Assembly: GCA_963707395.1 (NCBI GenBank)
Contig: CAVPPQ010000020.1
Location: 70,021-134,020, forward strand
DNA length: 64,000 nt
Source: an uncultured Chloroflexia bacterium
Lineage (GTDB): Bacteria; Chloroflexota; Limnocylindria; Limnocylindrales; CSP1-4
Direction: 5' to 3'
Shown: piece by piece, positions 8,330 to 29,016 of the stretch
Position numbering within the stretch: position 1 is the first letter of the stretch
How the letters are laid out: every line of letters begins with the position of its first letter
Notes under the pieces: generated by a model
Databases searched by the model: none
What the model saw: the letters and a program-made list of their open reading frames with translations, nothing else
What the model was told of the DNA's origin: nothing
Translations under genes and position numbers: made by a program

Positions 8330-9054
8330 ACCGGCTCCTCCTCGGGCAGCGCCCGCAGGATCTCCTGGTTGGCGCGATCGATGGCCACACCCATGGCTGC
8401 GCGGGCGGCCGGGTCATCACCTGCCGCGATGGCGTCGATGACGGCCGCGGCGTCCGCGGCCTGAACGTCCATGGCTTCCCTGGAGAGCGGCACCCGGGCC
8501 ACCCAGAACTGCAGCAGCGAGCGGATCGTGGCTGCCGCACCGGCCAGGACGTCGTTGTCGGCCACCTCCGTGACGGCGCGCAGGAAGGCCGCCTGGGCAG
8601 CGGCGAACCGCACCGGGTCGCGGTGGGCGGCCTTCATGGCCGCGTGGAGGGCGCGCAGGTCGGCCATGTCGCGCTCATCCCGGCGCACGGCCGCCAGGCC
8701 GGCCAGGATGACGTCGAGGTGTCGGCGCGCCTCGAGCAGGTCGGGCACGTGGCCGGCGCCCAGGACGAGCCCCCACTCGATCGACTCGGGCAGGATGTCC
8801 GCGTCCACGCGCTTGACGTAGGTGCCGTCCCCGAGGCGCACCTCGAGCAGGCCCAGCAGCGTCAACGACTTGAGCGCCTCCCGGACGACGGAGCGGCCGA
8901 CCCCCAGGACCTCCGCCAGCTTGCGCTCTGGAGGCAGCCTGTCGCCTGGCTGGACGCGCCCGGAGAGCAGGTAGTCCAGCAGCTGCCGACTGATGGAGAT
9001 GGTCGTCCCTTCGCGCCGCGACAGATCGAGCGGCTGCAGCGATCCACCCGTCAT
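8326..9054 (-). CDS. GntR-family transcriptional regulator, FadR (FCD) subfamily
   Basis: It has an N-terminal winged HTH (RLPPERKLAEVLGVGRSVVREAL) and a C-terminal FCD-like helical domain. Length is 242 aa. Confidence 0.85.
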   Translation of the reverse strand: MTGGSLQPLDLSRREGTTISISRQLLDYLLSGRVQPGDRLPPERKLAEVLGVGRSVVREALKSLTLLGLLEVRLGDGTYVKRVDADILPESIEWGLVLGAGHVPDLLEARRHLDVILAGLAAVRRDERDMADLRALHAAMKAAHRDPVRFAAAQAAFLRAVTEVADNDVLAGAAATIRSLLQFWVARVPLSREAMDVQAADAAAVIDAIAAGDDPAARAAMGVAIDRANQEILRALPEEEPV

Positions 9055-9827
9055 GGCTCGCCCGCGGCCGGGTGAGCAGCCGTGCCCGCGTCGGCTCGCC
9101 GACGTTCCTGCTCGTCAAGCGTCACCTGGAGCCGGTCGGCAGCGCCTTCCATGTGGCCCACCATGGCCCGCCGCGCCGCGGCTGCATCGCCAGCCTCGAT
9201 GGCCTCGAAGACAGCTTCGTGCTCGGCCCACGTGGCCGGCCGAGTCCCCGGCGCATAGGCCACGCGCTGGATCCAGACCTGCATGAGACTGCGAATGGAC
9301 TTCATGATCTGGAAGAGGGACTGATTGCCCGTCGACCGTGCGATCCCCAGGTGGAAGTCCACGTCGGCGCGGACGAACTCGTCGTTGTCCGTCGTCCGCT
9401 GCATGATCTCCACGCAGCGCCGCAGCTCCGTCAGGGCGGCTTCGTCACGGCGCTCCGCAGCCAGTCCGGCCAGCAGGATCTCCAGCTCCGCGCGCGCCTC
9501 CACGAGGTCCTGGGAACGCTTGGCCCCCAGCAGGAGCCCCCACTCGATGGCCAGCGGCAGCAGCGGGGAGTCCGTGCGCTTGAGGTACGTGCCGTCACCC
9601 TGGCGGGCGTCCACGAGGCCCAGCACGGTCAGCGACTTGATGGCCTGGCGGACGTGGGAGCGGCCGACGCCGAGCGTCTCCGCCAGCTGCCGCTCGGATG
9701 GCAGCCGCTCACCTGGCTTGACCTGCCCGGAGATGAGGTAGTCGAGCAGCCGACGGGTGACCTCCGAGGAGATGGGTTCCGGGTTCCGTTGGACGACGGG
9801 CCCCAGGTCGGGCAGCATGGTGGCCAT
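9051..9827 (-). CDS. GntR-family transcriptional regulator, FadR subfamily (tandem paralog)
   Basis: The HTH reads RLPSERQLAETLGVGRSHVRQAI. I placed the start at MATMLPDL (9827), which gives the same spacing to the HTH as in the neighbouring paralog. Its stop overlaps the downstream GntR start. Confidence 0.8.
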   Translation of the reverse strand: MATMLPDLGPVVQRNPEPISSEVTRRLLDYLISGQVKPGERLPSERQLAETLGVGRSHVRQAIKSLTVLGLVDARQGDGTYLKRTDSPLLPLAIEWGLLLGAKRSQDLVEARAELEILLAGLAAERRDEAALTELRRCVEIMQRTTDNDEFVRADVDFHLGIARSTGNQSLFQIMKSIRSLMQVWIQRVAYAPGTRPATWAEHEAVFEAIEAGDAAAARRAMVGHMEGAADRLQVTLDEQERRRADAGTAAHPAAGEP

Positions 9828-9944
9828 TGTAAGTGCCTCGATCGGCTGCCTCGAACGGCCCCCTGGGCGACGGACGGCCACGGCCGGGCTGTCATCGGGC
9901 GGACGGACGCGGGTCACCATGTCAGCCCTCCCCCTCCCTGATGC

Positions 9945-12329
9945 TCAACGACCGGAAACGGCCTCTACCACCGCGCGGATGCGAGCCACGCGGTCGGCAC
10001 GCTCGCGGACGAAGCGCTCGATGCCGGCCAGGATCTGCTCGCGACCGAGGCCGGCCTCGTCCATGACCTCGTCGACGCTGCCGCCGGTGCGCCAGCGGTC
10101 GTCGCGGTCGGCGCACAGGGTGTAGTCCTCGGCCACCGGGCCCAGGATCCAGTCGGACATGAGGCGCCGGGCACCGTTCGTGACGGCCATGGCGTCCCAG
10201 CGGTCGGCAGCCGACATGGTGGCCTCCCGGTAGGCGGCGTCCTGGCGGCGGAAGAGCTGCGGGCTGATGGCGGCCACGATCTTGACGTTGAGCCCCGCCC
10301 GGTCCAGCTCGGGCAGGATGGCAACGACATTGGCCGTGGGCACCGTGCCGCGCACGAAGACCGTGCCCATGCGCGGCTGCCCGTCGCGGAAGGGGCGCAT
10401 GACGTAGGCGCCGCGCGCGGCCTCGAAGTGCGATGGCATGCCGAGGGCTTCGCGGTCGGGGATGGCCACCGGCGGGCGCGTCAGGTGGAGAGCCACGATG
10501 GGCGCGTCCGTGGCCAGCGCAGCGCCCAGGACCACGGGCACCTCGTTGTGCTCCCAGGGATGAAGGTCGATGACCGCGCCTTCCGGGAAGAGCTGCGTGA
10601 CGCCGGTCTCGAAGATGCCGAAGTGCGTCCGCGAGTCCTCCGCGGTCTCCGGTCCGGAGTGGCCGGCGATCCAGATGATCTTGCCCAGCTTGAGCTCGCT
10701 GTCCTGGGCCATCTGGGAGAAGAGGCGCAGCGGCCCGTACTTCAGGTAGGAGAAGGAGGCGTACGTGGAGCAGGCGCCCCAGAACCCGTCGAAGGCTTCG
10801 CGCGCATCCGGGGCGAAGCTGACCGAGGCCATGCCGGCCAGGATGCCGGCGTTGGCCATCTCCGTGATCTCCTGGGGCAGGACCGACCCGCGCGGGTTGG
10901 CGTCACGCTCGTACCAACCCCAGCCGGGCAGCTCGCCGAAGTCCTTCGCGAAGCCGGCCACGTTGGTGGATTCGGCGAGGTCCGCGGAGCAGGCGATGAT
11001 CAGCGGGCGGCCGTGGCGCTGGCGCGCATAGGCGTTGACCCAGCTGCCCCAGGTGCCCAGCGCGGCGCGGTTCGGTTGCATGTCCCCCGGCGCCTTGTAG
11101 AGCTCCGCGGGGTAGGAGCGGAAGTCCGTGATGACCGGGTCGTTGAAGATGGCGGCCGTGTCGCCACCCAAGGTGCAGCCGGGGATGGCGTCCGGAACGG
11201 AGGCAGCCAGGTCCGCGAGGCGGTCGGACAGCCAGCGCACCGTGGCCTCGTCCCGGGTGAGCACGGAGAGCGCCAGCTGCAGGTTGGCAGCCGCCTGCGC
11301 CTGACGCGCCGCCGGATCCTCGGGTGCGGTCTGGCCGGCACCCTCGTAGGTCACGCCGTAGCGGGCCTGGAAGCCCTCGCGAGCGGTCCAGAAGGCCGGG
11401 CTGTTCAGGGCATGCGGGATGCCGTGGGAGGCGGCGTCCTGCTTGCCGTAGCCGCGACCCTTCTGCGTGCGGAACCAGGCCATGGTGGGCAGGCTCGCCG
11501 GGTTGTCACCCCGCGCTGCCTCCAGGGCCGTGCGCAGGACCGGCTCCCAGGCCATGCCCTCCGGCGTGCCCAGCGTGCGCCAGCCGTGCGAGGCGAACCA
11601 GTCCTGTGGCGTGCCGTAGATGACGGAGGATGCGGCTCGCGGGTCGATGCCGAAGTCGTTCCAGTCGACGAGGAAGACGAGGTTGCCGAGGCCCAGACCC
11701 CAGGCGGAGTTGAGCGTCTCGTGCGTGACGCCCGGGGTGAGGCCGCCCTCCCCTTCCACGACGAAGACCTTGACCTCCGGGCAACCGGCCATCTTGAGTG
11801 CCAGCGCTTCCCCGGCGGCGACGGGCATGCCGTGGCCGGACGGGCCCGTGTTGGCCTTGAAGAGCAGGGTCTTGCCGGCCATCTCGGCGTGCCCGGGCAG
11901 GCCACCGCGGTGGCGGAAGGTGAGCAGGTCCTCCCAGGTGAGCGCCCAGCGACCTTCGTCCGGGAAGGCGAAGCGCTCGTCGCCGTCGAGCGCGTGGCGG
12001 GCACGCATGCCCTCGTTCAGGGTGGCGAGGACGGCATAGATGAGCGGCACCGTGTGGCCGGCCGAGAGGACGAAGCGGTCGGAGAAGGTGCGCCAGGGCC
12101 GCAGCACGTCCCAGCGCATGGCGCCGCAGAGCAAGGTACCCAGGACGAAGTGGACCTTGGAACGTGATCCTCCGGGGTGGCCCGACTGGCGCTCGTTGAG
12201 GGTCAGGTCGATGAGCTCGTCGACGACGTCCTTGACGATCTCGTACCGTGCCATCTCGCTGTCATCGACCGGGAATGACCCGAGCGGCAGCGTGCGTCCC
12301 GACGCATCCATGCCTGATCCTCCATCCAC
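9945..12329 (-). CDS. Transketolase-family TPP-dependent enzyme, unusually long (794 aa), fused N- and C-modules with a C-terminal extension
   Basis: It has a GHPGGSRSK TPP motif, a GDGE-type motif (VVEGEGGL), and pyrimidine-binding and C-terminal regions. It runs about 100 aa longer than canonical transketolase. Confidence 0.8.
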   Translation of the reverse strand: MDGGSGMDASGRTLPLGSFPVDDSEMARYEIVKDVVDELIDLTLNERQSGHPGGSRSKVHFVLGTLLCGAMRWDVLRPWRTFSDRFVLSAGHTVPLIYAVLATLNEGMRARHALDGDERFAFPDEGRWALTWEDLLTFRHRGGLPGHAEMAGKTLLFKANTGPSGHGMPVAAGEALALKMAGCPEVKVFVVEGEGGLTPGVTHETLNSAWGLGLGNLVFLVDWNDFGIDPRAASSVIYGTPQDWFASHGWRTLGTPEGMAWEPVLRTALEAARGDNPASLPTMAWFRTQKGRGYGKQDAASHGIPHALNSPAFWTAREGFQARYGVTYEGAGQTAPEDPAARQAQAAANLQLALSVLTRDEATVRWLSDRLADLAASVPDAIPGCTLGGDTAAIFNDPVITDFRSYPAELYKAPGDMQPNRAALGTWGSWVNAYARQRHGRPLIIACSADLAESTNVAGFAKDFGELPGWGWYERDANPRGSVLPQEITEMANAGILAGMASVSFAPDAREAFDGFWGACSTYASFSYLKYGPLRLFSQMAQDSELKLGKIIWIAGHSGPETAEDSRTHFGIFETGVTQLFPEGAVIDLHPWEHNEVPVVLGAALATDAPIVALHLTRPPVAIPDREALGMPSHFEAARGAYVMRPFRDGQPRMGTVFVRGTVPTANVVAILPELDRAGLNVKIVAAISPQLFRRQDAAYREATMSAADRWDAMAVTNGARRLMSDWILGPVAEDYTLCADRDDRWRTGGSVDEVMDEAGLGREQILAGIERFVRERADRVARIRAVVEAVSGR

Positions 12330-12461: not shown

Positions 12462-13436
12462 TCAGTCCCCAGGGGCCAGGAGCTCCCGGCTCATCGCGAC
12501 GACATCGTCCGAGGAGACCTTGTAGCGCCACAGCAGGTCGTTGACGTGACCCGTGTGGATGAAGTCGTCGGGATCGGTGCCGATGGCGCCGACCCGCTTG
12601 CCCACCCCGCGTGCCACGAGCGTCTCAGCCACCAGCGAGTGAAGGCCGCCGCTCGTGCAGTGGTTCTCCAGGGTGATCATCGTCTCCACCTTGCCGGCCA
12701 GGTCGTAGACGAGATCGCGGTCGAAAGGCTTGAGGCTGGGATGGTGGTCCACCCGGACCCCGATGCCCAGGGCCTTGAGCTTGTCCGCCGCGGCGAGGGC
12801 CGTGTGCAGCATGAAGCCGGTGGTCATGAGGCCCACGTCCGAGCCCTCGTCGGAGACCGTCACGCCCTTGCCGACCTGGAAGCGGTAGTCCGAGCCGATG
12901 AGGTCGTCTGCCACCTCGCAGCGCACGATGCGCAGGTAGACCGGGCCCGGCGTCTCCACGGCGGCGCGCATGACCTGGCGCATCTCCGCGTTGCATGACG
13001 GCTCCAGCACGGTCAGCCGTGGCACGCGCAGCAGCGTGCCCAGCTCCTTGTCGCTCTGGTGCGTGGCCCCGGCCTTGCCCGTGAAGAGGCCCACGTAGGC
13101 GCCGATGAACTTCACGTTCAGGTTGCTGTAGGCGACCGTGACGTAGAGCTGGTCGAGCATGCGGCGACTGAAGGCGTCGAAGGTGCAGGGGAAGGGGATG
13201 AAGCCTTCCTGCGACAGTCCGGCCGCCATGCTCACGAGGTTCTGCTCGGCGATGCCGGACTTGACCAGCTTGCCCGGGTGGAAGTGCTCGAAGATGTGGA
13301 GGCCGGTGGATGAGCGCAGGTCGGCGTCGAGAGCCACGATCCTGGGGAACTCGACGGCGAGATCCGCCAGCGTGAAGCCCATCTGGTAGCGCATCTCCGT
13401 GGTGACGTTCCGGTCAGGCAGCGTGAATTGAGCCAT
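12462..13436 (-). CDS. Transketolase C-terminal (pyrimidine-binding) subunit, split transketolase pair 1
   Basis: It has a TK C-subunit core (GIAEQNLVSMAAGLS...FPCTFDAF) and a TK C-terminal domain. Length is 324 aa. Confidence 0.85.
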   Translation of the reverse strand: MAQFTLPDRNVTTEMRYQMGFTLADLAVEFPRIVALDADLRSSTGLHIFEHFHPGKLVKSGIAEQNLVSMAAGLSQEGFIPFPCTFDAFSRRMLDQLYVTVAYSNLNVKFIGAYVGLFTGKAGATHQSDKELGTLLRVPRLTVLEPSCNAEMRQVMRAAVETPGPVYLRIVRCEVADDLIGSDYRFQVGKGVTVSDEGSDVGLMTTGFMLHTALAAADKLKALGIGVRVDHHPSLKPFDRDLVYDLAGKVETMITLENHCTSGGLHSLVAETLVARGVGKRVGAIGTDPDDFIHTGHVNDLLWRYKVSSDDVVAMSRELLAPGD

Positions 13437-13448
13437 CGTCGCGGTCTC

Positions 13449-14537
13449 CTACATCTGCCGATCGGTGATGACGTCCACGGCCTCGTGCAGCGGCGGGACG
13501 ATCTCGGTCATGGCCTTGACGGCCTCGGGGAACGCGCGCGGGATGCCCAGGCGCTTGCCGTCATGCTCCCAGAGCTCGTCGATCCAGAGGCCGGCGGCCT
13601 CCGCGTTGCGAGGGGCGGATGTGTGCCAGTTGACGTTGTACTGGGCCTGGTCGACCTTCTTGCCCTTGACGGTATTGAGGATCACGGCCGCCGGCTTGCC
13701 GCGCCGCTGGGTGCCGATGACGTTGAAGAGGTCCACCAGCTCGGCCACGTCATGGCCGTTCTGGACGTCGTACACGGACAGGTTGAAGGCGCGCAGCTTG
13801 TCGGCCAGCGGCTCCAGGCTCATGTCCTGGGCCAGGAAGCCCTTGGCGAAGACCTTGTTGTAGTCGATGACGAAGACGATGTTGTCCAGCTTGTAGTGCC
13901 CGGCAGCCATGAAGGCCTCCCAGACGGAGCCCTCATTGCACTCGCCATCGCCCATGAGCACATAGATCATGCGGTCGCCGTGGTCCGGTCCACCGAAGCG
14001 CATGCCCAGCGAGCGGCCCACGGCCACGCCGGGGATCTGTCCCAGCGAGCCGCCACTGACCTCGATGCCCGGGGTCTCGGTGGAGTCGGGGTGCGATTCC
14101 AGGCCGGAGCCCCACATGCCGTAGTACTTGAGGCGCTCCACCTCGAAGTAGTCGAAGAGGGCCATGACCGTGTACACCGCGGGGCAGGCGTGGCCCTTGG
14201 AGAGGTAGAAGACGTCCCGCATGGCCCAGCCCGGGTCAGATGCGTCGAAGCGCAGGACGTAGTTGAAGAGGACAGCCAGGAACTCCGACTCCGAGAAGCT
14301 GCCGCCCGGATGCCCCAGGCCGGCACACGTCATCTGCCACGTCGTGTAGGTGCGGATGAGGTAGGCCAGCGTCTCGGTGTTGCGGAGCAGGTCCGCGTGA
14401 CCCGGATGGAAGGGCAGGCTGTCGACGCGCGTGCGCGTGTCCGCCCGCCACGGCGTCCACAGCTGGCCCACGTCCAGCGGATCGAACTGCCCGGGTGGGA
14501 TGGCGATACGTGCGGGGAGCGGCGGCATCTGGGTCAT
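13449..14537 (-). CDS. Transketolase N-terminal (TPP-binding) subunit, split pair 1, with extended termini (362 aa)
   Basis: It carries GHPGGSFS and GDGECNEGSVWEA motifs. It lies 12 bp upstream of its C-subunit partner. Confidence 0.85.
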   Translation of the reverse strand: MTQMPPLPARIAIPPGQFDPLDVGQLWTPWRADTRTRVDSLPFHPGHADLLRNTETLAYLIRTYTTWQMTCAGLGHPGGSFSESEFLAVLFNYVLRFDASDPGWAMRDVFYLSKGHACPAVYTVMALFDYFEVERLKYYGMWGSGLESHPDSTETPGIEVSGGSLGQIPGVAVGRSLGMRFGGPDHGDRMIYVLMGDGECNEGSVWEAFMAAGHYKLDNIVFVIDYNKVFAKGFLAQDMSLEPLADKLRAFNLSVYDVQNGHDVAELVDLFNVIGTQRRGKPAAVILNTVKGKKVDQAQYNVNWHTSAPRNAEAAGLWIDELWEHDGKRLGIPRAFPEAVKAMTEIVPPLHEAVDVITDRQM

Positions 14538-14579: not shown

Positions 14580-15524
14580 TCAGCGTGGCTTGAGCGCCAC
14601 GGCCCGGCGGGCCGCGGCCACGATGTCGGCGACAGCGAGACCGAGCAGTGCCAGCAGCTCGTCGTACGGTCCCGTCGTGCCGAAGCGATCAGCGATGCCG
14701 ACGCGCTCCACGGGCACGGGTCGCACCGCGGCCAGGGCCTCGACGACCGCGCCGCCCAGGCCGCCGACGATGCTGTGCTCCTCCGCGGTCACCAGGGCGC
14801 CGGTCTCCCGCGCGGCCGTGATGATCGTGTCGCTGTCGAGGGGCTTGACGGTGTGCACCTCGATGACGCGCGCGTCGATGCCCTCGGCGGCCAGGGCCTC
14901 CGCGGCCTCCAGGCAGCGGCTGACCATGAGCCCCGTGCCGACTAGGGTCACGTCGCCCCCGGGCCGCAGGACGAGGGCCTTGCCGATCTGCGGGGCGTAG
15001 TCGTCCCCGTGGATGAGCGGCACCTCGTTGCGATTGAGACGCATGTAGACGGGACCCGGCCAGGCCGCCACCTGGGGAAGCAGCTTCGCCACGGCCGTCG
15101 TGTCCGTGGGCACCACGATGGTCATGCCCGGCAGTGAGCGCAAGATGGCGATGTCGGTGATGGCGTGGTGCGTGGGGCCGTCGAAGGAGTCGGACACGCC
15201 GCCGTAGGCGCCCATGAGCTTGACGGGCACGCCGCCGTAGCAGAGGTGGGTGCGCACCATCTCCAGGGCGCGGGTGGCGAAGAGGAAGGCGAACGTGTTG
15301 GCGATGGCGACCTTCCCGGTCAGGGCCACGCCGACGGCCACGTCCACGAGCGACTGCTCGGCGATGCCGACGTTGATGAAGCGCTCCGGGAAGGCCTCCG
15401 CGAAGCGGAACGAGAAGTCCGAGTTGGAGACGTCGGCCGAGAGGACGACCACGTCGTCGCGGTCACGACCGAGCTGCACGAGCGCGTCGCCGTAGGCCGG
15501 GCGCATGGGAGCCAGCGTGGTCAT
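14580..15524 (-). CDS. Transketolase C-terminal subunit, split pair 2
   Basis: It has GIAEQSLVDVAVGVAL and a TK C-terminal domain. Length is 314 aa. Its start overlaps the upstream N-subunit stop. Confidence 0.85.
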   Translation of the reverse strand: MTTLAPMRPAYGDALVQLGRDRDDVVVLSADVSNSDFSFRFAEAFPERFINVGIAEQSLVDVAVGVALTGKVAIANTFAFLFATRALEMVRTHLCYGGVPVKLMGAYGGVSDSFDGPTHHAITDIAILRSLPGMTIVVPTDTTAVAKLLPQVAAWPGPVYMRLNRNEVPLIHGDDYAPQIGKALVLRPGGDVTLVGTGLMVSRCLEAAEALAAEGIDARVIEVHTVKPLDSDTIITAARETGALVTAEEHSIVGGLGGAVVEALAAVRPVPVERVGIADRFGTTGPYDELLALLGLAVADIVAAARRAVALKPR

Positions 15525-21491: not shown

Positions 21492-21610
21492 CCGCTATCC
21501 TCTTGATGTCCATGCGATACTGAATGTATATGCAGCACATCCGTGCGACGGACACCACGGAGGAGGATGGCGCCCCTCGGGGCCGCCAGAGGGGGAGACA
21601 GCGCAGCGGG

Positions 21611-22526
21611 ATGCAGGGATCGCCCACACGGCAGGCTGTTGAGTTGCGGGCGCGCGCCACGGAGGCTCGATTGCGCGACCTGCGCATGGTCTACGAGGCC
21701 GGCCTGGGGCACATCGGGGGTGAGTTCTCAGCCCTTGACATCCTGACCGTCCTGTACCACGCGGTCCTGCGTCTCGACCCGCAGCGGCCGGACTGGCCGG
21801 AGCGCGACCGCTTCATCCTCAGCAAGGGCCACGCCGCGGCCGCCCTGTACGCGACGCTGGCCGGCGCCGGCTTCATCGACGTGGCGGAGCTGGACACCTG
21901 GTTGGCTCCGCTCTCCCGACTCAACGGGCACCCCGACCGCAAGAAGGTGCCGGGCGTGGAGACCAACACCGGCCCCCTGGGCCACGGCTTCCCGGTGGCC
22001 GTCGGCACAGCCCTGGCCGGCCAGATGGATGGTTCGAGTCGACGCACCTTCGTGCTCTGCGGCGACGGGGAGCTGCAGGAGGGCTCCATGTGGGAGGCCG
22101 CCATGGCCGGCTCGCACTTCGGCTTGGAGCGGCTGACACTCATCGTCGATCGCAACGGGCTGCAGCAGGGAGACACCACGGAGCGCACGATGCGCCTCGA
22201 TCCCCTCGCCGACCGCTTCACGGCCTTCGGCTGGGCCGTGCGCGAGGTCGATGGCCACGACCACGCCGCGCTGCTGGAGAGACTCACGGCCGTGCCCTAT
22301 CGAGCCGGGGATGCCCAGCTGCCTCATCGCGCACACGCACAAGGGCCACGGCGTCTCCTTCATCGCCGACCAGGTCGCCTGGCACCACCACGTGCCCACG
22401 GCAGACGAGTACGAGCGCGCCCGTGCGGAGCTGGAAGCGCAGCTCGTGGATGCCGAGGCGCAGCTCGCGACGCTGCGCACCCCGCCGTCAGCGGCGGCGA
22501 CCCCGGCACCGACGGTGCAGGCATGA
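21611..22526 (+). pseudogene. Transketolase N-terminal subunit, split pair 3, reading frame broken by an apparent 1-nt indel near 22295-22310
   Basis: The N-part (GLGHIGGEFSALDIL...GDGELQEGSMWEA) lies in one frame. The conserved C-terminal end of the N-subunit (PSCLIAHTHKGHGVSFIAD...EYERA) lies in another frame. The intervening stretch in the original frame is Arg/Pro-rich junk. Confidence 0.7.
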
Positions 22527-23470
22527 CCCGCTTCGATGGGGCCGCGCGACACGACTGTCGCGATGCCTTCGTCGACACCCTGCTGGACCTCGTGGCCGCC
22601 GATCCGCGCGTCGTGGCCGTCGTCAACGATTCGCTCGGCTCGACCAAGGTCACCAAGGTCGCCAAGGCTTTCCCGGAGCGCGTCATCAACGTCGGCATCG
22701 CCGAGCAGGACCTGGTGGGCATCGGCGCCGGCCTCGCCAACGGCGGCAAGATCCCCTTCGTCTGTGCCGCCTCACCCTTCCTGACCGGCCGGGCCCTCGA
22801 GCAGATCAAGGTCGACGCCGCCTACAGCGCCGCCAACGTCAAGCTGGTGGGCGTCAGCAGTGGCGTGGCCTACGGGGAGCTGGGGCCGACGCATCACTCC
22901 ATCGAGGACGTGGCCTGGACACGAGCGATCGACGGCCTGGTGGTGGTGGTGCCGGCCGACCCGCTCGAGACGAGCCAGGCCATCCGGGCCGCCTACGAGC
23001 TGGAGGGTCCCATCTTCGTGCGCACCAGCCGCATGCCCGTGCCGGACGTCCACGGCCCCGACTACCGCTTCCGCATCGGCCGGGCGGCCCTCCTGCGAGC
23101 GGGTGCCGACGTCACGCTCATCGCCAACGGCGTCATGGTCTGCCGTGCCCTGGAGGCCGCGGAGCTGCTGGCGGCCGAGGGCATCGAGGCGCGCGTCCTG
23201 GACATGGCCACGGTCAGCCCGATCGACCGTGAGGCCATCGTCGCGGCGGCGCGCGAGACGCGCGGCATCGTCACCGCCGAGGAGCACATCGTGCGCGGCG
23301 GCCTCGGAGGTGCCGTGGCGGAGGTCGTCGTCACCGAGCACCCGGTGCCCATGCGCCTGCTGGGTTTCCCGGGCTTCGCCCCGACCGGTTCCATCGACTT
23401 CCTGCTGGAGTGGGCCGGCCTCACCGCCGACGGCATGGCCCGCGCCGCTCGTGAGCTCGTGAGCGCCTGA
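22523..23470 (+). CDS. Transketolase C-terminal subunit, split pair 3
   Basis: It forms an ATGA overlap with the end of the N-subunit frame. It has GIAEQDLVGIGAGLA and a TK C-terminal domain. Length is 315 aa. Confidence 0.85.
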   Translation: MTRFDGAARHDCRDAFVDTLLDLVAADPRVVAVVNDSLGSTKVTKVAKAFPERVINVGIAEQDLVGIGAGLANGGKIPFVCAASPFLTGRALEQIKVDAAYSAANVKLVGVSSGVAYGELGPTHHSIEDVAWTRAIDGLVVVVPADPLETSQAIRAAYELEGPIFVRTSRMPVPDVHGPDYRFRIGRAALLRAGADVTLIANGVMVCRALEAAELLAAEGIEARVLDMATVSPIDREAIVAAARETRGIVTAEEHIVRGGLGGAVAEVVVTEHPVPMRLLGFPGFAPTGSIDFLLEWAGLTADGMARAARELVSA

Positions 23471-23471
23471 C

Positions 23472-24515
23472 GTGGCCCGCGTGGACGAACTGCGCCTCAT
23501 GACCCGCGTGGCAGGCCTCTACCACGACGATGGTGTGCGCCAGCCGGAGATCGCGCGGCGCCTGAGGCTCTCGCAGCCCAAGGTCTCGCGGCTGCTCAAG
23601 CAGGCCCACGAGGTGGGCATCGTGCGCATCTCGGTGCGACCACCGAGCGGCACCAATCCGGAGCTGGAGCGGGCCATCGAGAGCAGCTATGACCTCCACC
23701 AGGTGGAGGTCGTCGACATCTCGCGCGACGACGACGAGGCCGCCGTCCGGGAGCTCGGTGCGGCGGCCGCCTACCACCTCGAGACGACCGTGCGCAGCGG
23801 GGACGTCATCGGCGTGTCCTCCTGGAGCGCCACGCTGCTGGCCATGGTGGATGCCATGCACCCGGTCAACGGCGTGCGCGACACGCAAGTGGTCCAGATC
23901 CTGGGCGGCGGCGGCGATCCCGCAGCCGAAGGCCATGCCACCCATCTCGTGCGTCGCATGGCGCACCTCCTGCACGGGGAGGGCACGTTTCTGCCGGCGC
24001 CCAGCAGCGTGGGCTCGAAGGCCTCCCGGGACGTGCTCCGGGAGGACCCCTTCGTGCAGCGCGCCATGGCCCTCTGGGACGACCTGGACGTGGCACTGGT
24101 GGGCATCGGCGGCCAGGAGCCTTCCGGGTTGCTGGCCAGCAGCGGCAACGTCTTCTCTCGCGAGGAGCTGCAGACAGTGCGTGCCGCAGGCGGCATCGGG
24201 GACATCGGCCTGCGCTTCCTCTGCGGGGACGGCACGCCCGTGCGGTCGGCCCTCGACGAGCGCGTCATCGGCATCGAGCTGGAGCAGCTGAAGCGCGTGC
24301 CTCGCGCCATCGGGGTGGCCGGAGGGCCCGGCAAGACGACGGCCATCCGGGCCGCCCTGCTGGGTGGCTGGATCAACTGCCTCATCACCGACCGGTTCAC
24401 CGGCGAGCGCCTCCTGGGGCTGAGCCCCCAGGCCAGCGCGGGCGCCCGGCTGACCGGTGCAGACGGCCAGTCCAAGGAAGCGTCAACCCAACTCGCAGGA
24501 GCGGTCTTGGCATGA
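23472..24515 (+). CDS. SorC/DeoR-family sugar-binding transcriptional regulator
   Basis: It has an N-terminal HTH (QPEIARRLRLSQPKVSRLL) and a C-terminal SorC sugar-binding domain (GVSSWSATL...ALVGIGG). It starts at a GTG. Confidence 0.8.
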   Translation: MARVDELRLMTRVAGLYHDDGVRQPEIARRLRLSQPKVSRLLKQAHEVGIVRISVRPPSGTNPELERAIESSYDLHQVEVVDISRDDDEAAVRELGAAAAYHLETTVRSGDVIGVSSWSATLLAMVDAMHPVNGVRDTQVVQILGGGGDPAAEGHATHLVRRMAHLLHGEGTFLPAPSSVGSKASRDVLREDPFVQRAMALWDDLDVALVGIGGQEPSGLLASSGNVFSREELQTVRAAGGIGDIGLRFLCGDGTPVRSALDERVIGIELEQLKRVPRAIGVAGGPGKTTAIRAALLGGWINCLITDRFTGERLLGLSPQASAGARLTGADGQSKEASTQLAGAVLA

Positions 24516-25204
24516 AGCGGAAGATCAGTCCGGGTCTCGCCGTGCTCATCGGCGCGGTGGCCATCTTCGTGGTCGTGGCCGTGCTGTTCGGCTTCACGGT
24601 CATCTCCACCGAGGACGAGGCGGCACTCGATGTCCAGTTCGACCCCGTCACCTTCGTGGCCGACTCGTGGGATGAGGTGCAGACGGTCATCACGGACGAA
24701 GCCGTGCCGCTTGCCGACGTGCTCAACCGCATCACGCCCGACGCCGACGGCAAGGCCACGACCGAGGCGCTGACGCCGGTGGCGGAAGAGCTCGGGCGCA
24801 TCACGACCGGCAATGCCCACGTCTACCGGGTCACGGCCACGGGCACGGTCACCGACGTCGACACGGAGACCAGCAAGGGCACCCTGGGCATGACGATCGA
24901 CGGCTACGAGGGACCCATCGCGGTGCGCGTCTACGTGGGCTCGCGCATCCCCAGCGACAAATCCTCCATCCGCGACGCCACTGGCTTCATCGAGTTCGGC
25001 GATTTCCGCGAGCAGACCGAGTACGGCAAGGTGGCCGCGGAGATCAACAAGAAGGTCCTCGAGAATCTCGAGGCGGTCGATGTCGAGTCGCTGGTGGGCA
25101 AGCCCATCTCCGTCACCGGCGCCTTCACCCTGCGTACCCAGAACCAGCCGTCGGTCGACGTCAGCCAGGTCTCCCTGGTGCCCATCGCGGTCAGCACCCC
25201 GTGA
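24512..25204 (+). CDS. DUF2291-like membrane-anchored/periplasmic protein associated with sugar ABC transporters
   Basis: It overlaps SorC with ATGA and has an N-terminal TM/signal segment. Length is 230 aa. The family call rests on my recollection that DUF2291 proteins precede CUT2 ATPases. Confidence 0.5.
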   Translation: MKRKISPGLAVLIGAVAIFVVVAVLFGFTVISTEDEAALDVQFDPVTFVADSWDEVQTVITDEAVPLADVLNRITPDADGKATTEALTPVAEELGRITTGNAHVYRVTATGTVTDVDTETSKGTLGMTIDGYEGPIAVRVYVGSRIPSDKSSIRDATGFIEFGDFREQTEYGKVAAEINKKVLENLEAVDVESLVGKPISVTGAFTLRTQNQPSVDVSQVSLVPIAVSTP

Positions 25205-26808
25205 CGACGGTCCTGGAGCCCCAGATCGTGGCCGAGCCAGCGGTGACCGCTCACGTGCCCATGCGCGCCGAGCACATCACGAAGGTCTTCCCGGGCACCA
25301 CGGCCCTCGATGACGTGAGCTTCGACGTGTTCGCCGGACAGGTGAACGTGCTCGTGGGCGAGAACGGCGCCGGCAAGTCGACGCTGATGAAGATCCTGGC
25401 CGGCGTGGAGCAGCCCACCTCGGGGCGCGTGCTCATGGACGGCGAACCCGTCGAGCTGCCCAGCGTCACGGCCGCCGCGCAGCACGGCGTGGGCATCATC
25501 TTCCAGGAGCTCAACCTCTGCGCCAACCTGTCGGTCCTGGACAACCTCTTCCTGGCCCAGGAGCTGGTGCGCGGCGTGGCCATCGACCGCAGGGCCGAGC
25601 GGGAGAAGGCACGCCAGCTGCTGGCGCGCCTGGAGCAGGACATCGATCCGGATGAGCTGGTCAGCAACCTGCGCATCGGCCAACAGCAGATCGTCGAGAT
25701 CGCCAAGGCCCTCACCCACGACGTGCGCGTCCTCATCATGGATGAGCCCACCTCGGCCCTCTCGCAGGCGGAGGTGCAGGGCCTCTTCCGCATCATCCGC
25801 GATCTCAAGTCGCGCGGTGTCTCCATCGTCTACATCTCGCACAAGCTGGAGGAGCTGCTCCAGGTCGGCGACCGCATCACGGTCCTGCGCGACGGTCGTG
25901 TGGTGGCCCACGCGGAAGCGGCCGACGTTGACGTGCCCTGGATCATCGAGCAGATGGTGGGCCGCTCTGCGGCCTCGTTGTTCGCCCGGAGCGAACGTCA
26001 GATGGGCGAGACCCTGCTGCGCGTCGATGACGTGACCCTGCCGCGCCTGGGTGGGGGCTACCTGCTCGAGCACGTCTCCCTGCAATTGCACGCCGGCGAG
26101 ATCCTGGGGCTCTATGGCCTGATGGGCGCCGGTCGCACCGAGCTCATGGAGGTGCTGGCAGGCGTCCGTCCGGAGGCCAGCGGCGAGGTCTGGATCGGCG
26201 AGCGGCGCCTCGACGGCGCCAGCGTCGCGGACCGCATCGAGGCCGGCATCGTGCTGGTGCCCGAGGATCGCAAGACGGACGGCCTGGTGCCCACGCTATC
26301 GGTGGCCCACAACATGGTGCTGGCCAGCCTGCGGCGCTACCTCAACCGCTTCTTCCTGTCACGGAGCCAGGAGCGCACTGCCGTCGAGCAGATGATCGCC
26401 GACCTCTCCGTGCGCGTCTCCAGCCCCACCGCCAGCATCGGCTCGCTCTCGGGCGGCAACCAGCAGAAGGTCGTGGTGGCCAAGGGCCTTCTGACCGCAC
26501 CCAAGGTCCTGCTGCTGGATGAGCCCACGCGCGGCATCGACGTGGGCGCCAAGTCGGAGATCTTCCAGATCATGAGCCGCCTGGCCAGCCAGGGCTACGG
26601 CATCCTCTTCGTCTCCTCTGAGCTCAAGGAGGTGCTGGCCATGTCCGACCGCATCCTGGTGCTCTCGAAGGGCGCCGTGGTGGCCGAGTTCGAGGGCCAA
26701 CGCGCGACGGAGAAGGAGCTCGTCGACGCCTCGGCCGCCGGGCACGGCCCGGCCCGTCCAGCCAGCCAGCCATCGTCCCAGGCCCCAGCCACCACCGAGG
26801 TGATCTAG
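25201..26808 (+). CDS. Sugar ABC transporter ATP-binding protein with duplicated NBDs (CUT2)
   Basis: It has Walker A sites GENGAGKST and GLMGAGRTE and two LSGG motifs. Length is 535 aa. It forms a GTGA overlap upstream. Confidence 0.9.
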   Translation: MTTVLEPQIVAEPAVTAHVPMRAEHITKVFPGTTALDDVSFDVFAGQVNVLVGENGAGKSTLMKILAGVEQPTSGRVLMDGEPVELPSVTAAAQHGVGIIFQELNLCANLSVLDNLFLAQELVRGVAIDRRAEREKARQLLARLEQDIDPDELVSNLRIGQQQIVEIAKALTHDVRVLIMDEPTSALSQAEVQGLFRIIRDLKSRGVSIVYISHKLEELLQVGDRITVLRDGRVVAHAEAADVDVPWIIEQMVGRSAASLFARSERQMGETLLRVDDVTLPRLGGGYLLEHVSLQLHAGEILGLYGLMGAGRTELMEVLAGVRPEASGEVWIGERRLDGASVADRIEAGIVLVPEDRKTDGLVPTLSVAHNMVLASLRRYLNRFFLSRSQERTAVEQMIADLSVRVSSPTASIGSLSGGNQQKVVVAKGLLTAPKVLLLDEPTRGIDVGAKSEIFQIMSRLASQGYGILFVSSELKEVLAMSDRILVLSKGAVVAEFEGQRATEKELVDASAAGHGPARPASQPSSQAPATTEVI

Positions 26809-27921
26809 GTGACAGCCAGTGCGCAGACGTACAAGCCCCGCAGCATGAGTCGCACCGAGGCCGCGCAGTTCCTGCTCCGTGGCCGTGCCTTCATCGCGCT
26901 CATCGTGCTGGCCGTCTTCTTCGCCGTCATGGAGAGCTCCTTCCTGACGGGCGCCAACATCGAGATCCTCATCAAGCAGACGGCCCTCAACGCCATCCTC
27001 GCCATCGGCATGACCTTCGTCATCCTGACCGGCGGCATCGACCTCGCCGTGGGCTCCATCGTGGGCTTCACCGGCATCATCGCGGGCCTGCTCATCAACC
27101 AGGGCCTGGACATCGGCCTCCTGGGCGTCGTGGTCTACCCGCACACCTGGATGGTGCTGGTCATCTCCCTGGCGGCGGGCACGTTCCTGGGCGCCATCAG
27201 CGGCTTCATCATCACGCGCTTCAACGTGGCGCCCTTCATCGCCACGCTCGGCATGCTCCTCGTGGCACGCGGCCTGGCGGGGCTCATCAACGGCGGCAAG
27301 ACGTTCCCCAACCTGGTGGGCAAGGAGCAGCTGGGCAACACCGGCTTCCGCGAGCTGGGCACGGGGGAGCTCTTCGGCATCGTCCCCTGGGCCATCGTCA
27401 TCATGGTCATCTTCGCCGCCGTGGCCTGGTTCGTCACCACCCGGACACCCTTCGGGCGTGCGGTGTACGCGGTAGGCGGAAACGAGCGTTCCGCCGAGCT
27501 CTCCGGCGTGCGCGTCAACCGCACCAAGATGATCGTGTACATGATCAGCGCCTTCTGCGCCGCGACCGTGGGGCTCATCATCGCCTCGCAGTTGGTGGCC
27601 GCGCACCCCGCCACGGGCCAGTACTTCGAGCTCTACGCCATCGCCGCGGTCGTCCTGGGTGGCACATCGCTGGCCGGTGGTCGCGGGACCATCATCGGCA
27701 CGCTCATCGGCGCCTTCGTCATCGGCATCCTCAACAACGGCCTGACCCTGATGGGCATCTCCTCGTTCCTGGAGCTGATCATCACGGGCACCGTCATCGT
27801 GCTGGCGCTGATCATCGACCAGCTCCAGCAGCGCGCCGAGCGGCGCCTGGCCCTGCAGCAGCAGGCGGCCCAGGTCGGCGCCATCAGCGACTCTCCCACC
27901 TCGACATCACGCGACGACTGA
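26809..27921 (+). CDS. Sugar ABC transporter permease (RbsC-like)
   Basis: The GTG sits directly after the ATPase stop. Length is 370 aa and it is multi-pass hydrophobic. Confidence 0.85.
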   Translation: MTASAQTYKPRSMSRTEAAQFLLRGRAFIALIVLAVFFAVMESSFLTGANIEILIKQTALNAILAIGMTFVILTGGIDLAVGSIVGFTGIIAGLLINQGLDIGLLGVVVYPHTWMVLVISLAAGTFLGAISGFIITRFNVAPFIATLGMLLVARGLAGLINGGKTFPNLVGKEQLGNTGFRELGTGELFGIVPWAIVIMVIFAAVAWFVTTRTPFGRAVYAVGGNERSAELSGVRVNRTKMIVYMISAFCAATVGLIIASQLVAAHPATGQYFELYAIAAVVLGGTSLAGGRGTIIGTLIGAFVIGILNNGLTLMGISSFLELIITGTVIVLALIIDQLQQRAERRLALQQQAAQVGAISDSPTSTSRDD

Positions 27922-28032
27922 AAGGAGGGACGATCCGGAGAGAGGACTGGGTAGTGGTCGGCCCGGTGGCATCGACAGCGTCGAGGCCGGCCAGGTCGAC
28001 GATCGGGATCCAAGCACACCAGGGAGGATGGA

Positions 28033-29016
28033 ATGAATCGCAACAAGAGCGTGCGCGGCCTGCTGATGGTGGCCGTCGTGGCGGCCGCGATCGGGTCGCA
28101 GGCCATGGTGGCCACGGCCCAGGACAAGGGCAACATCTGTGTCATCGTGCCGCCGGTGGAGAACCCCTTCTTCGGCGCCATGCAGACCATCGCCGCCGAC
28201 AAGGCCGAGGAGCTCGGCTACACGACCACGCGCCTCGTCCACAACGACGACGCCAACACGCAGCTCGAGCTCTTCGAGTCCTGCATCGCTGACGGCGCCA
28301 AGGCCATCATCCTTGACAACGCCGGTGCCGACGCCACGGTGGCAGCGGTGCAGGCCGCCAAGGACGCCGGCATCCCCAGCTTCCTCGTCGACCGCGAGAT
28401 CACGTCGGAAGGCGTGGCCGTGGCCCAGATCGTCTCCAACAACTACCAGGGCGCCACGATCCTGGCCGAGGAGTTCGCCTCCCTCATGGGCGAGGAAGGC
28501 ACGTACATCGAGCTGACCGGCAAGGACACGGACACCAACGCGAGCGTCCGCTCGCAGGGCTACCACGAAGTCCTTGACGCCATCGACACCATGGAGATGG
28601 TCGCCCAGCAGACCGCCAACTGGAGCCAGGACGAGGGCTTCACGGTCGCTGAGGCCCTGCTCCAGCAGTACCCGGATGTCAAGGGCATCATCGCCGGCAA
28701 CGACACGATGGCCCTGGGCGCCCAGGCCGCCGTCGAGGCCGCCGGCAAGCCGGAGATCATCGTCGTCGGCTTCGACGGCAGCGATGACGCCATCATGTCC
28801 ATCAACGCGGGCGGCCTGAAGGCCACCTCGCTGCAGCCCGTTGCCGAGATGGCGACCCAGGCCGCGGTGCAGGCGGATGCCTACCTGACCGCAGGCGGCA
28901 CCACCGAGCTGCCCGAGAAGCAGTCCATCGACATGGTGCTCATCACCCCGGACAACGCCTGCGACTACTTCCAGTTCGCGCCGGTGGAGGCCGGGACCTC
29001 GCCCAACTGCCAGTAG
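28033..29016 (+). CDS. Sugar ABC transporter substrate-binding protein (RbsB-like)
   Basis: It has a signal peptide followed by a type-I periplasmic binding fold (ICVIVPPVENPFF...GNDTMALGA). Length is 327 aa. Confidence 0.85.
   Translation: MNRNKSVRGLLMVAVVAAAIGSQAMVATAQDKGNICVIVPPVENPFFGAMQTIAADKAEELGYTTTRLVHNDDANTQLELFESCIADGAKAIILDNAGADATVAAVQAAKDAGIPSFLVDREITSEGVAVAQIVSNNYQGATILAEEFASLMGEEGTYIELTGKDTDTNASVRSQGYHEVLDAIDTMEMVAQQTANWSQDEGFTVAEALLQQYPDVKGIIAGNDTMALGAQAAVEAAGKPEIIVVGFDGSDDAIMSINAGGLKATSLQPVAEMATQAAVQADAYLTAGGTTELPEKQSIDMVLITPDNACDYFQFAPVEAGTSPNCQ

Follow-up and report, generated by a model that had tools for sequence, protein, structure and literature searches.

D-apiose is a characteristic sugar of two plant cell-wall polysaccharides, rhamnogalacturonan-II and apiogalacturonan. 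Carter and colleagues reportedly discovered the apiose pathways in 2018, and four bacterial routes for the sugar are said to have been described. The enzymes of the D-apiose transketolase pathway (MetaCyc PWY-8089) are ApsI, AplK and AptA/AptB. The apiose cluster of Escherichia coli SE15 comprises ECSF_RS02670-02715; the published account states that strains with the cluster grow on D-apiose, and that Escherichia apiose clusters are without apsI, two short-chain dehydrogenases/reductases (SDRs) being proposed as substitutes. In the sulfo-transketolase pathway (SqwGH, SqwI, SqwF), a split transketolase removes C2 units stepwise to glyceraldehyde-3-phosphate, with an isomerase acting between the cuts and a PF00465 reductase at the end. 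Here we describe an island of transketolase and sugar-transport genes from an uncultured soil Chloroflexia bacterium, located in a 64,000-nt stretch of DNA (hereafter the window: positions 70,021 to 134,020 of contig CAVPPQ010000020.1, assembly GCA_963707395.1).

Four transketolase-family systems lie within 9.9-23.5 kb of the window on the evidence of open reading frames (ORFs) and Pfam: three split pairs (a, b and 3), each with an N and a C subunit, and a protein of 794 aa (TK794). Because the window has about 70% G+C, genes were selected from a mechanical ORF list by third-position GC (GC3); annotation was by Pfam and NCBIfam, and gene content, homologies, synteny and active-site residues are reported as observed. 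On these grounds the inventory and coordinates given in an initial annotation of this DNA proved essentially right. On balance we lean towards a two-part explanation, in which the locus is a sugar-catabolic island centred on D-apiose. The first part, an operon on the plus strand (19665-29016), probably belongs to the apiose transketolase pathway. The second, a module centred on the minus strand, is most likely an undescribed transketolase-dependent route for apiose or an oxidised derivative.

The plus-strand operon and the apiose cluster of E. coli

The SE15 cluster holds two SDRs, a permease, an ATPase, DUF2291, a binding protein, AplK, a SorC-type regulator, AptA and AptB. Seven of seven gene families are common to this cluster and the plus-strand operon, whose genes are listed below with identities to their E. 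coli counterparts.

19665-21206, plus strand: GlpK-like FGGY kinase, candidate AplK (Pfam, NCBIfam); 47% identical to SE15 AplK over the full length
21524-22526, plus strand: pair 3 N subunit, AptA-like, frameshifted (frame analysis and alignment)
22523-23470, plus strand: pair 3 C subunit, AptB-like (frame analysis and alignment)
23472-24515, plus strand: SorC regulator (Pfam); 42% identical to the SorC-type regulator
24512-25204, plus strand: DUF2291 (Pfam); 21% identical to the cluster DUF2291
25201-26808, plus strand: ATPase of the second ATP-binding cassette (ABC) importer (Pfam); 47% identical to the cluster ATPase
26809-27921, plus strand: permease of the second importer (Pfam); 48% identical to the cluster permease
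28033-29016, plus strand: binding protein of the second importer (Pfam); 40% identical to the cluster binding protein

The importer, DUF2291 and SorC components of the apiose transketolase cluster are all present by Pfam. Over 281 aa the binding protein shares 59% identity with PDB 5IBQ/4RY0 (337 bits); the next PDB match, the best ribose-binding protein, scores 185 bits. 5IBQ is reportedly a Rhizobium etli protein that Carter and colleagues crystallised with D-apiose. The initial annotation could name no pathway for the island and cited the apiose transketolase as an analogy only. For the plus-strand operon this no longer holds, since the operon matches the SE15 apiose cluster family by family and its binding protein matches 5IBQ; for the minus-strand operon the statement stands. 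We therefore place the plus-strand operon, with fair confidence, as a new member of a known pathway, in a phylum from which to our knowledge it had not been described; its specificity for apiose we infer from likeness of sequence.

In such a pathway the ABC importer, with its apiose-type binding protein, would bring the sugar into the cell. Apiose would be converted to apulose, possibly via two SDRs as proposed for Escherichia, because no ApsI isomerase is present: a tblastn search of the 64-kb window with seven AP_endonuc_2 proteins from related clusters found no ApsI-type isomerase. Each SDR of the window shares 34-37% identity with the SDR pair of the E. coli cluster. The GlpK-like kinase would phosphorylate apulose to apulose-4-phosphate, and the AptA/AptB-like split transketolase would transfer C1-C2 of this compound to glyceraldehyde-3-phosphate, yielding xylulose-5-phosphate and dihydroxyacetone phosphate. 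The remark in the initial annotation that there is no obvious isomerase is borne out within the window, but not for the related clusters considered below, nearly all of which carry xylose-isomerase-like TIM-barrel (AP_endonuc_2) genes.

The ORF finder returned pair 3 as a single 648-aa ORF (21524-23470). A true fusion was first favoured on the strength of the ORF list and a seemingly continuous tblastn match to L003, one of two related Chloroflexia metagenome-assembled genomes (MAGs; labels of this form denote loci in other genomes). The fusion was ruled out on three grounds: alignment with other N subunits shows that residues ~257-335 of the ORF are out-of-frame, Arg/Ala/Pro-rich junk; the genuine C-terminal part of the N subunit (..EPGMPSCLIAHTHKGHGVSFIADQVAWHHHVP..) sits in another frame, at 22299-22526; and the TGA of the N gene overlaps the ATG of the C subunit at 22523 (ATGA). 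A 1-nt insertion (cccTatc) near 22298, in the region 22290-22304, breaks the AptA-like frame; since no stop interrupts the alternative frame, a false 648-aa "fused transketolase" appears in ORF lists. Pair 3 consists of two separate genes, as first annotated, and its N gene is frameshifted in the present sequence; the window holds no intact aptA reading frame. The MAG L003 is in frame at the equivalent of 22298, and the other related MAG, L001, has a different indel 12 nt upstream. The frameshift could be an assembly or sequencing error, or a recent inactivation. With the frame corrected, the N subunit and E. coli AptA share 47% identity over 268 aa. The C subunit is 40% identical to E. coli AptB and is its sister in a neighbour-joining tree, drawn with no bootstrap, of 74 split-transketolase C subunits.

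Several points weigh against the apiose assignment. The pair 3 N subunit is nearly as close to pair b (46%) as to AptA, and the C subunit is closer to pair b (44%) than to AptB. Pair 3 also retains two phosphate-binding Arg residues that are absent from E. coli AptB. The kinase resembles E. coli GlpK (44% identity) nearly as closely as it does AplK (47%). Discrimination of AplK from GlpK was attempted by sequence identity and by NCBIfam score, and neither told the two apart: the window kinase and AplK both score ~490-547 bits on GlpK models, near the cut-offs.

Pair a and the racemase-like protein of the minus-strand operon

The minus-strand module would comprise the operon 17106-8326, a lactonase-like gene of the ApnL family and, probably, a set of upstream genes described below. 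The operon itself, in the order of its transcription, is as follows.

16444-17181, minus strand: Asp/Glu-racemase-family gene, probable start 17106 (Pfam Asp_Glu_race)
15521-16423, minus strand: pair b N subunit (Pfam), overlapping its C subunit by 4 nt
14580-15524, minus strand: pair b C subunit (Pfam)
13449-14537, minus strand: pair a N subunit (Pfam)
12462-13436, minus strand: pair a C subunit (Pfam)
9945-12329, minus strand: TK794, transketolase-family protein of 794 aa (Pfam Transketolase_N)
9051-9920, minus strand: GntR/FCD regulator, tandem partner of the next (Pfam GntR and FCD)
8326-9054, minus strand: GntR/FCD regulator (Pfam GntR and FCD)

All four transketolase systems have intact thiamine diphosphate (ThDP) and metal motifs, catalytic histidines and cofactor-activating Glu. 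Eight substrate-binding positions, numbered R358, D381, S385, E411, H461, D469, H473 and R520 in E. coli TktA, read as follows.

Ordinary split transketolases in the sample (20 loci): RDSEHDHR
Pair b together with the clade around it (27 loci): RDSEYDHR, Tyr replacing His461 of TktA
Pair a (6 of 6 genomes): RDSEYAHR, with Ala at the TktA Asp469 equivalent
Pair 3: RDSESLHR, with Leu at the TktA Asp469 equivalent
E. coli AptB: ADTENLHG, with Leu at the TktA Asp469 equivalent

The full canonical set of the housekeeping enzyme is not found in pairs a, b or 3 and is kept by TK794 alone. The three pairs are 32-46% identical to one another, which bears out the view of the initial annotation that this is a catabolic transketolase island and not a set of copies of one housekeeping gene. 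They also represent distinct conserved families (72-98% identity for pair b and 64-93% for pair a), with Asp in pair b, Ala in pair a and Leu in pair 3 at the Asp469 position. Structural work on transketolase has Asp469 of TktA reading the hydroxyl at C2 of the acceptor, equivalent to that at C4 of the donor; apulose-4-phosphate, the donor of AptB, has a tertiary C3 and no C4 stereocentre. Loss of the Asp469 equivalent in pair a would accordingly fit branched donors.

Leu at this position was considered as a hallmark of apiose transketolases and set aside, since it also occurs in L043, in a polysaccharide-biosynthesis context, and in L146, in an uninformative one. The Leu-type split transketolase of L043 (12477-20728) is surrounded by glycosyltransferase, DegT aminotransferase, methyltransferase and Polysacc_synt_2 genes, with an ApnL-like gene 3 kb away; it is probably a transketolase-like enzyme for the biosynthesis of a branched sugar.

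The family of the pair a N subunit (64-93% identity) extends to proteins labelled Chloroflexota, Brocadiaceae, Phycisphaerae, NC10, Poribacteria and Kiritimatiellia. Four of its contexts outside the large Chloroflexota cluster were examined, and in three of them pair a and a racemase-like gene stand beside apiosidase genes of PF13204 (GH140). In L169 (labelled Phycisphaerae) the order is GntP, a 326-aa protein, pair a, racemase-like gene and a DUF5060+PF13204 apiosidase. In L172 (labelled Kiritimatiellia) it is DUF1537 kinase, AraC, pair a, apiosidase, racemase-like gene, sulfatase and three more apiosidases, four copies in all. In L173 a glycosidase precedes pair a, an SDR, the racemase-like gene, LacI, an ABC importer and an apiosidase. 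Because PF13204 (GH140) is a small family, three such adjacencies in four contexts are unlikely to be due to chance, a judgement and not a computed statistic. Against an apiose role stands the fourth context, L170, where pair a is accompanied by TRAP transporters, GntR, a metallo-beta-lactamase (MBL) fold gene, two HpcH aldolases and a 2-hydroxyacid dehydrogenase, and where neither an apiosidase nor a racemase-like gene was found. The 326-aa protein of L169 (9009-9989), between the GntP permease and pair a, has a signal-peptide-like N-terminus and no Pfam or NCBIfam match; it may supply a missing pathway step.

The racemase-like protein of the window scores 67 bits on Pfam Asp_Glu_race (PF01177), and sequence searches found no relative of it in PDB or NCBIfam. 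Its alignment with orthologues begins at Met26 (17106). The first catalytic Cys is kept in a TCS motif; the position of the second reads AQx(S/T)M in eight of eight homologues from Chloroflexota and bacteria of the Planctomycetes-Verrucomicrobia-Chlamydiae group. A two-base racemase is unlikely because the second catalytic Cys is absent from all eight. The proteins of L169, L172 and L173 are 27-30% identical to that of the window and share the signature, and the gene is always found with a transketolase pair, not with amino-acid genes. With one base an enzyme can catalyse a 1,2-proton shift, as RpiB does in aldose-ketose isomerisation, or a decarboxylation with subsequent protonation, in the manner of arylmalonate decarboxylase.

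These features suggest a scheme whose substrates and reactions we infer throughout from the genes. The ThDP enzymes of the module would cut C2 units from phosphate-free ketoses or keto-acids. The single-Cys racemase-like protein would ready the transketolase donor by one-base proton transfer, most simply by converting apiose to apulose. Pair a would cleave the branched, tertiary-C3 donor, releasing dihydroxyacetone from apulose and passing the C2 unit to glyceraldehyde-3-phosphate, with no prior phosphorylation. Pair b and TK794 would handle ordinary ketoses or hydroxypyruvate arising downstream, and the lactonase and SDRs would feed an oxidative (apionate) branch.

Conserved contexts and rival readings

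The whole island is syntenic, in the same order, in the two related MAGs L003 (91% identity) and L001 (73%), both of which are full of frameshifts, and the minus-strand gene order is also found in the more distant genomes L171 and L087. The arrangement is not a matter of chance, given this synteny and recurrence. A survey of one genome per species for relatives of the 645-aa protein assigns the window to the Chloroflexia. The remaining features of the island are the following.

29-514, plus strand: E1 alpha of pyruvate dehydrogenase (PDH)/acetoin type, truncated at the window start (Pfam E1_dh)
531-1622, plus strand: PDH/acetoin-type E1 beta (Pfam Transket_pyr/Transketolase_C)
1635-1964, plus strand: free-standing lipoyl-domain protein, 109 aa (Pfam Biotin_lipoyl)
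1968-2780, plus strand: first SDR oxidoreductase, SDR1 (Pfam adh_short)
2623-3597, plus strand: ORF of the second SDR oxidoreductase, real start probably near 2830 (Pfam adh_short)
3752-5287, plus strand: ATPase of the first CUT2 ABC importer (Pfam)
5284-6312, plus strand: permease of the first CUT2 importer (Pfam)
6439-7446, plus strand: binding protein of the first CUT2 importer (Pfam)
7460-8329, plus strand: MBL-fold hydrolase (Pfam)
17261-17659, plus strand: cyclophilin-like protein PF04126 (Pfam, 137 bits)
17711-19648, minus strand: ApnL-family homologue, 645 aa (NCBIfam NF049900)
29205-29280, minus strand: tRNA-Ile, anticodon TAT (ARAGORN and Rfam), the right edge of the island

The PF04126 gene, which the initial annotation had called DUF3830, is conserved only in the closest MAGs, L001 and L003.

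Pair b orthologues are 68-98% identical across genomes, and their recurrent partners are racemase-like, AP_endonuc_2, E1/E2, Fe-ADH, ApnL-like and TK794 genes. On the 8-kb contig L090 (57% G+C) a single strand carries GntR, AP_endonuc_2, a TK794-like gene (58% identity), pair b (70%), a racemase-like gene (48%) and an ApnL-like gene (42%). The clusters of L068 and L093 hold E1 alpha, E1 beta, a full E2, Fe-ADH (PF00465), pair b, a racemase-like gene, AP_endonuc_2 and SDR1; L068, and not L093, adds an aldehyde:ferredoxin oxidoreductase (AFOR) and an ApnL-like gene. The fullest cluster is that of L171. Its divergent side encodes a lipoyl-only protein (92 aa), E1 beta, E1 alpha and an FAA-hydrolase-family gene. 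Its operon opens with a racemase-like gene (65%), an IolO-like 5-keto-L-gluconate epimerase homologue (241 bits on NCBIfam), pair b and class III and class IV aminotransferases, and continues with pair a, tartronate-semialdehyde reductase (363 bits, NCBIfam cut-off 341), TK794, a hydroxypyruvate-isomerase (Hyi)-like gene (256 bits, cut-off 353) and two GntR/FCD regulators. L087, from the genome of L002, carries a cluster like that of L171, with an E2 catalytic-domain gene following pair a. The tandem GntR/FCD pair thus closes the L171 cluster as it does that of the window, and a GntR/FCD gene flanks pair b in L086, L090 and L087. The minus-strand operon of the window is a reduced version of the L171-type arrangement. 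It weighs against the proposed route that tblastn found in the window no AP_endonuc_2, Fe-ADH, E2 catalytic domain, reductase or aminotransferase of the types present in the related clusters.

A broad clade of split transketolases with Tyr at the His461 equivalent (L094-L114) is 50-59% identical to pair b. Its members are flanked by IolO-like and Hyi-like AP_endonuc_2 genes (L094), by E1 alpha/beta, AFOR and Fe-ADH (L096) or by CUT2 importers, and they look catabolic, not housekeeping.

The 645-aa protein, which the initial annotation had left unassigned, matches NCBIfam NF049900 (D-apionate lactonase ApnL) over positions 13-593 of the 595 in the model. It is a member of the ApnL family by sequence, of uncertain specificity: sequence searches found no Pfam or PDB match, and it counts against an apionate substrate that the protein scores 268 bits where the equivalog cut-off is 750. 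In the window the gene is the immediate neighbour of the plus-strand operon, a point in favour of the apiose assignment of that operon; homologues adjoin pair b in L090 and L068. The wider family was surveyed with one genome per species (507 confirmed loci, with the contexts of 80, L001-L080, examined). A further point against is that this wider family (~35% identity) occurs without transketolases in 76 of the 80 loci, its usual neighbours being GntR/FCD, SDR and CUT2 genes and sometimes an MBL-fold hydrolase. It is common in genomes labelled Chloroflexota, Poribacteria, Acidobacteriota and Planctomycetota. Members without transketolases may be lactonases for other sugars. The known oxidative apiose route is incomplete here, because the scanned window proteins include no DUF1537 kinase and no RuBisCO_large domain, and ApnO was not found among the scanned genes, although no search aimed at it was made.

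Among the upstream genes, E1 beta scores 367 bits on an NCBIfam PDH E1-beta subfamily (cut-off 321), and E1 orthologues (62-89% identity) adjoin pair b clusters in L068, L093, L087 and L171. Among NCBIfam models the lipoyl protein best matches that for the lipoyl domain of acetoin dehydrogenase E2. A search of the whole window for an E2 catalytic domain found none, the full E2 proteins of L068 and L093 matching the lipoyl domain only, and no E3 was seen among the window genes scanned. A free lipoyl protein of 68-109 aa follows E1 beta in the window, in L171 (502-780) and in L087, which has the free lipoyl protein at 5262-5468 and the E2 catalytic-domain gene at 16496-17209; L068 and L093 have a normal three-domain E2. 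Both SDRs give generic NCBIfam SDR matches close to the glucose-1-dehydrogenase subfamily. SDR1 has orthologues (51-53% identity) in the pair b clusters of L068 and L093; the ORF of the second overlaps that of the first by 158 nt, and its homology starts near residue 72. The binding protein at 6439-7446 has best PDB matches of <=122 bits. Homologues of the MBL-fold hydrolase (37-54% identity) stand next to ApnL-like or pair a genes in L002, L018, L036, L076 and L170.

Promoter-like sites lie at 17206-17177 (racemase-like gene) and 21472-21501 (pair 3), where operon starts are expected; counts in the promoter and terminator scan were not above those in shuffled sequence. The longer ORF of the racemase-like gene encloses the first of these sites. 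An Rfam scan of the island found no riboswitch (such as one for thiamine pyrophosphate), the tRNA being the sole match. That tRNA-Ile, whose TAT anticodon is unusual among bacteria, lies 190 nt past the last island gene, a position suggestive of an integration site; base composition is nonetheless uniform across the island. The window as a whole is rich in sugar-utilisation genes, among them a GH36 alpha-galactosidase (47425-50190, minus strand) and a third CUT2-type ABC importer (57130-60510, plus strand).

The contents of the related clusters allow another donor for pair a, namely 3-oxo-isoapionate, the known product of ApnO, which would be cut to hydroxypyruvate. Such a donor would explain the Hyi-like isomerase, reductase, aminotransferases, E1 with lipoyl carrier and canonical-site transketolase of L171, as well as the ApnL-like lactonase and SDRs of the module and the DUF1537 kinase of L172. 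Pair b, because it keeps the Asp and has epimerase, isomerase, Fe-ADH and AFOR partners, would cut ordinary unphosphorylated ketoses stepwise in the manner of SqwGH. A bolder version, which we put forward tentatively and hold to be rather unlikely as it stands, is that pair a and the single-Cys racemase-like protein constitute a fifth D-apiose route with no dedicated kinase or RuBisCO-like protein. In Chloroflexota it would be extended by pair b, TK794, E1 with the free lipoyl protein, Hyi-like isomerases and tartronate-semialdehyde reductase, and so would convert the whole sugar to xylulose-5-phosphate and glycerate. The minus-strand operon and the upstream E1, lipoyl and SDR genes match no pathway found in the literature, and yet are conserved; a literature search for a pathway combining transketolase, racemase and lactonase, or transketolase, Hyi and GlxR, found no relevant description.

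The place of TK794 in such a route is open to a different reading. The protein scores 66 bits on Pfam Transketolase_N, its Pyr and C domains are weak, and its best PDB matches are transketolases; an exact-sequence look-up found it not on record. TK794 may be the general pentose-phosphate transketolase of the organism, unusually long, and either incidental to the island or engaged in processing xylulose-5-phosphate from the other transketolases. We consider this only somewhat unlikely, since none of the 14 transketolase cofactor and catalytic positions varies among 121 family members (GEG standing in place of GDG), the Asp469 equivalent is kept along with the Arg, Ser and His residues that bind phosphate, and the family is 67-87% identical across Chloroflexota, with matches labelled Limnocylindrales and Dormibacterota. 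The 132-nt gap between TK794 and pair a points the same way, as do three homologues (70-75% identity) in contexts unrelated to sugars, which also count against a dedicated role in the island. From these three TK794 was first read as unrelated to the island, a view revised once the gene turned up in six pair b clusters. Against a purely general role, it lies no more than 10 kb from pair b in at least six independent clusters (L085, L086, L087, L090, L161 and L171). In L090 it forms part of the operon, and in L171 it is flanked by the tartronate-semialdehyde reductase and Hyi-like genes; in the E. coli gcl-hyi-glxR operon the corresponding position is held by glyoxylate carboligase.

Two further observations concern the neighbours of TK794 homologues. 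In L081 (6814-10373) and in L082/L083 (6793-10370) the homologue lies directly downstream of a class I/II aminotransferase, with frames touching or overlapping, which suggests a shared 2-oxo-acid substrate; hydroxypyruvate would be a guess. In L081 (10424-15139) genes for a DHO_dh-like protein and pyruvate:ferredoxin oxidoreductase immediately adjoin the homologue. In the window a DHO_dh-like gene and a 1225-aa pyruvate:ferredoxin oxidoreductase are found at 34768-39470 (minus strand), 22 kb from TK794, and may be the trace of an older arrangement later interrupted by sugar genes.

A second alternative takes the whole minus-strand module to be independent of apiose and a mere neighbour of the apiose operon, engaged in a general chopping of C2 units from other unphosphorylated ketoses or keto sugar acids (keto-uronates, 5-keto-aldonates, 3-oxo-tetronates). 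As in the sulfo-transketolase pathway, an epimerase or isomerase would set the donor, a transketolase cut would be followed by re-isomerisation and a second cut, and the last aldehyde or oxo-acid would become glycerate. Pair b clusters elsewhere are without AplK, AptAB and the apiose-type binding protein, and some of them point to other sugar acids, with IolO-like, FAA hydrolase, Ldh_2, FucU and LarA genes; both observations count against an apiose substrate. Also in keeping with C2 chopping are the Hyi/OtnI-like isomerase and tartronate-semialdehyde reductase that join the IolO-like epimerase homologue in pair b clusters, the PF00465 Fe-ADH and AFOR genes (the sulfo-transketolase pathway too ends with a PF00465 reductase, SqwF), and the transporters near pair a, which include the acid-sugar types GntP and TRAP. 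We nevertheless judge this account unlikely. It leaves aside the GH140 apiosidases adjoining pair a and the racemase-like gene on three contigs, the ApnL-family lactonase within the pair b operons of L090 and L068, the absence from pair a, as from AptB, of an Asp469 equivalent, and the joining of the module to the apiose operon in the lineage of the window, syntenic in L001 and L003.

It is very improbable that the transketolase genes serve no separate pathway and are only decaying or redundant copies of a split housekeeping enzyme. The frameshift in the pair 3 N gene would suit such decay. The conservation data contradict this: the pairs have diverged from one another to the degree given above, many genomes carry orthologues at 64-98% identity in conserved surroundings, every system retains its cofactor and catalytic residues, and the frameshift is absent from L003. 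Least credible of all is that the genes provide glycolyl or hydroxyethyl units for making a natural product. Such a supply exists in the quinocarcin and naphthyridinomycin systems, whose transketolase-like enzyme loads a C2 unit on a lipoyl/E2-like protein. The clustering with a free lipoyl protein, the separate E2 catalytic-domain gene of L087 and the polysaccharide context of the L043 pair recall it, but neither the window nor the related clusters contain nonribosomal peptide synthetase, polyketide synthase, carrier-protein or tailoring genes. What surrounds the transketolases is a set of importers, GntR/SorC regulators, a lactonase, sugar isomerases, glycosidases and a tartronate-semialdehyde reductase.

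Returning to the two-part explanation, it would place a recognisable operon for apiose uptake and transketolase cleavage in Chloroflexota. It also draws attention to a conserved gene pair with no assigned function beside GH140 apiosidases in other phyla, namely a transketolase family that has lost the Asp469 equivalent and a racemase-fold protein with one Cys. Should the module prove to be a new route for apiose or apionate, then transketolase chemistry would extend to new donors, branched or acidic, with possible value in biocatalysis, a reaction new to the Asp/Glu racemase fold would be added, and a new class of transketolase substrates would be recognised across Chloroflexota and on contigs of several other phyla. 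Annotation of carbon cycling would improve for the abundant Chloroflexota of soil and for contigs labelled Planctomycetota, Kiritimatiellia and Poribacteria, and a widespread family of ~790-aa transketolases, annotated only as "transketolase", would gain a testable function. From its genomic context, the island is a lead towards a further apiose or apionate route and towards three unannotated enzyme families.

Comparison with known systems

The closest likeness is that between the plus-strand operon and the D-apiose transketolase pathway: both have an FGGY kinase, a split transketolase, SorC, DUF2291 and a CUT2 importer with an RbsB-like protein, and as in Escherichia there is no apsI and two SDRs are available. 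The host here is a member of the Chloroflexia, and gene order is altered. The SDRs of the window lie 17 kb off, in another operon; pair 3 keeps its two phosphate-binding Arg residues and its AptA-like gene is frameshifted; and the kinase is indistinguishable by sequence from glycerol kinase.

With the oxidative D-apiose pathways (ApsD, ApnL, ApnO, OiaK and the RuBisCO-like OiaC/OiaX) the window shares the ApnL-family homologue, SDR dehydrogenases that possibly oxidise the sugar and the apiose-type binding protein. For the rest it has transketolase-family enzymes, a PDH-like E1/lipoyl pair and the single-Cys racemase-like protein instead.

The sulfo-transketolase pathway has in common with the module the logic of a split transketolase acting on a ketose that is no sugar phosphate, and pair b clusters, too, carry isomerases and PF00465. 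The isomerases of those clusters, however, are AP_endonuc_2 proteins, PF00465 alcohol dehydrogenases are confined among the related clusters to L068, L093 and L096, and the window has neither isomerase nor Fe-ADH. Scans of the window for sulfoquinovosidase, sulfoquinovose isomerase, PF02502 isomerase, sulfoacetaldehyde reductase and sulfonate exporter found none of these markers.

A further likeness is to the E. coli gcl-hyi-glxR operon, in that TK794 of L171 is a thiamine enzyme with the same two partners; it belongs to the transketolase and not to the Gcl (TPP_enzyme) family, and the window is without both partners. With acetoin and pyruvate dehydrogenase complexes the window shares E1 alpha, E1 beta and a lipoyl domain, but the window and L171 both encode the lipoyl domain as a protein by itself, of 92-109 aa and with no acyltransferase domain, and the window genes are embedded in a sugar cluster. 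The racemase-like protein shares PF01177 and the first Cys, in TCS, with the Asp/Glu/hydantoin racemase superfamily, which includes arylmalonate decarboxylase and maleate isomerase. Asp/Glu racemases use two catalytic Cys, one on each side of the substrate, and the window protein has the first only; arylmalonate decarboxylase, which keeps only the second, is its mirror image.

Taken as a whole, the minus-strand module is like AptAB and SqwGH in its logic, and differs from both in employing other transketolase families, a one-Cys racemase-fold protein, E1 with a free lipoyl protein, a transketolase of 790 aa and, presumably, other substrates.

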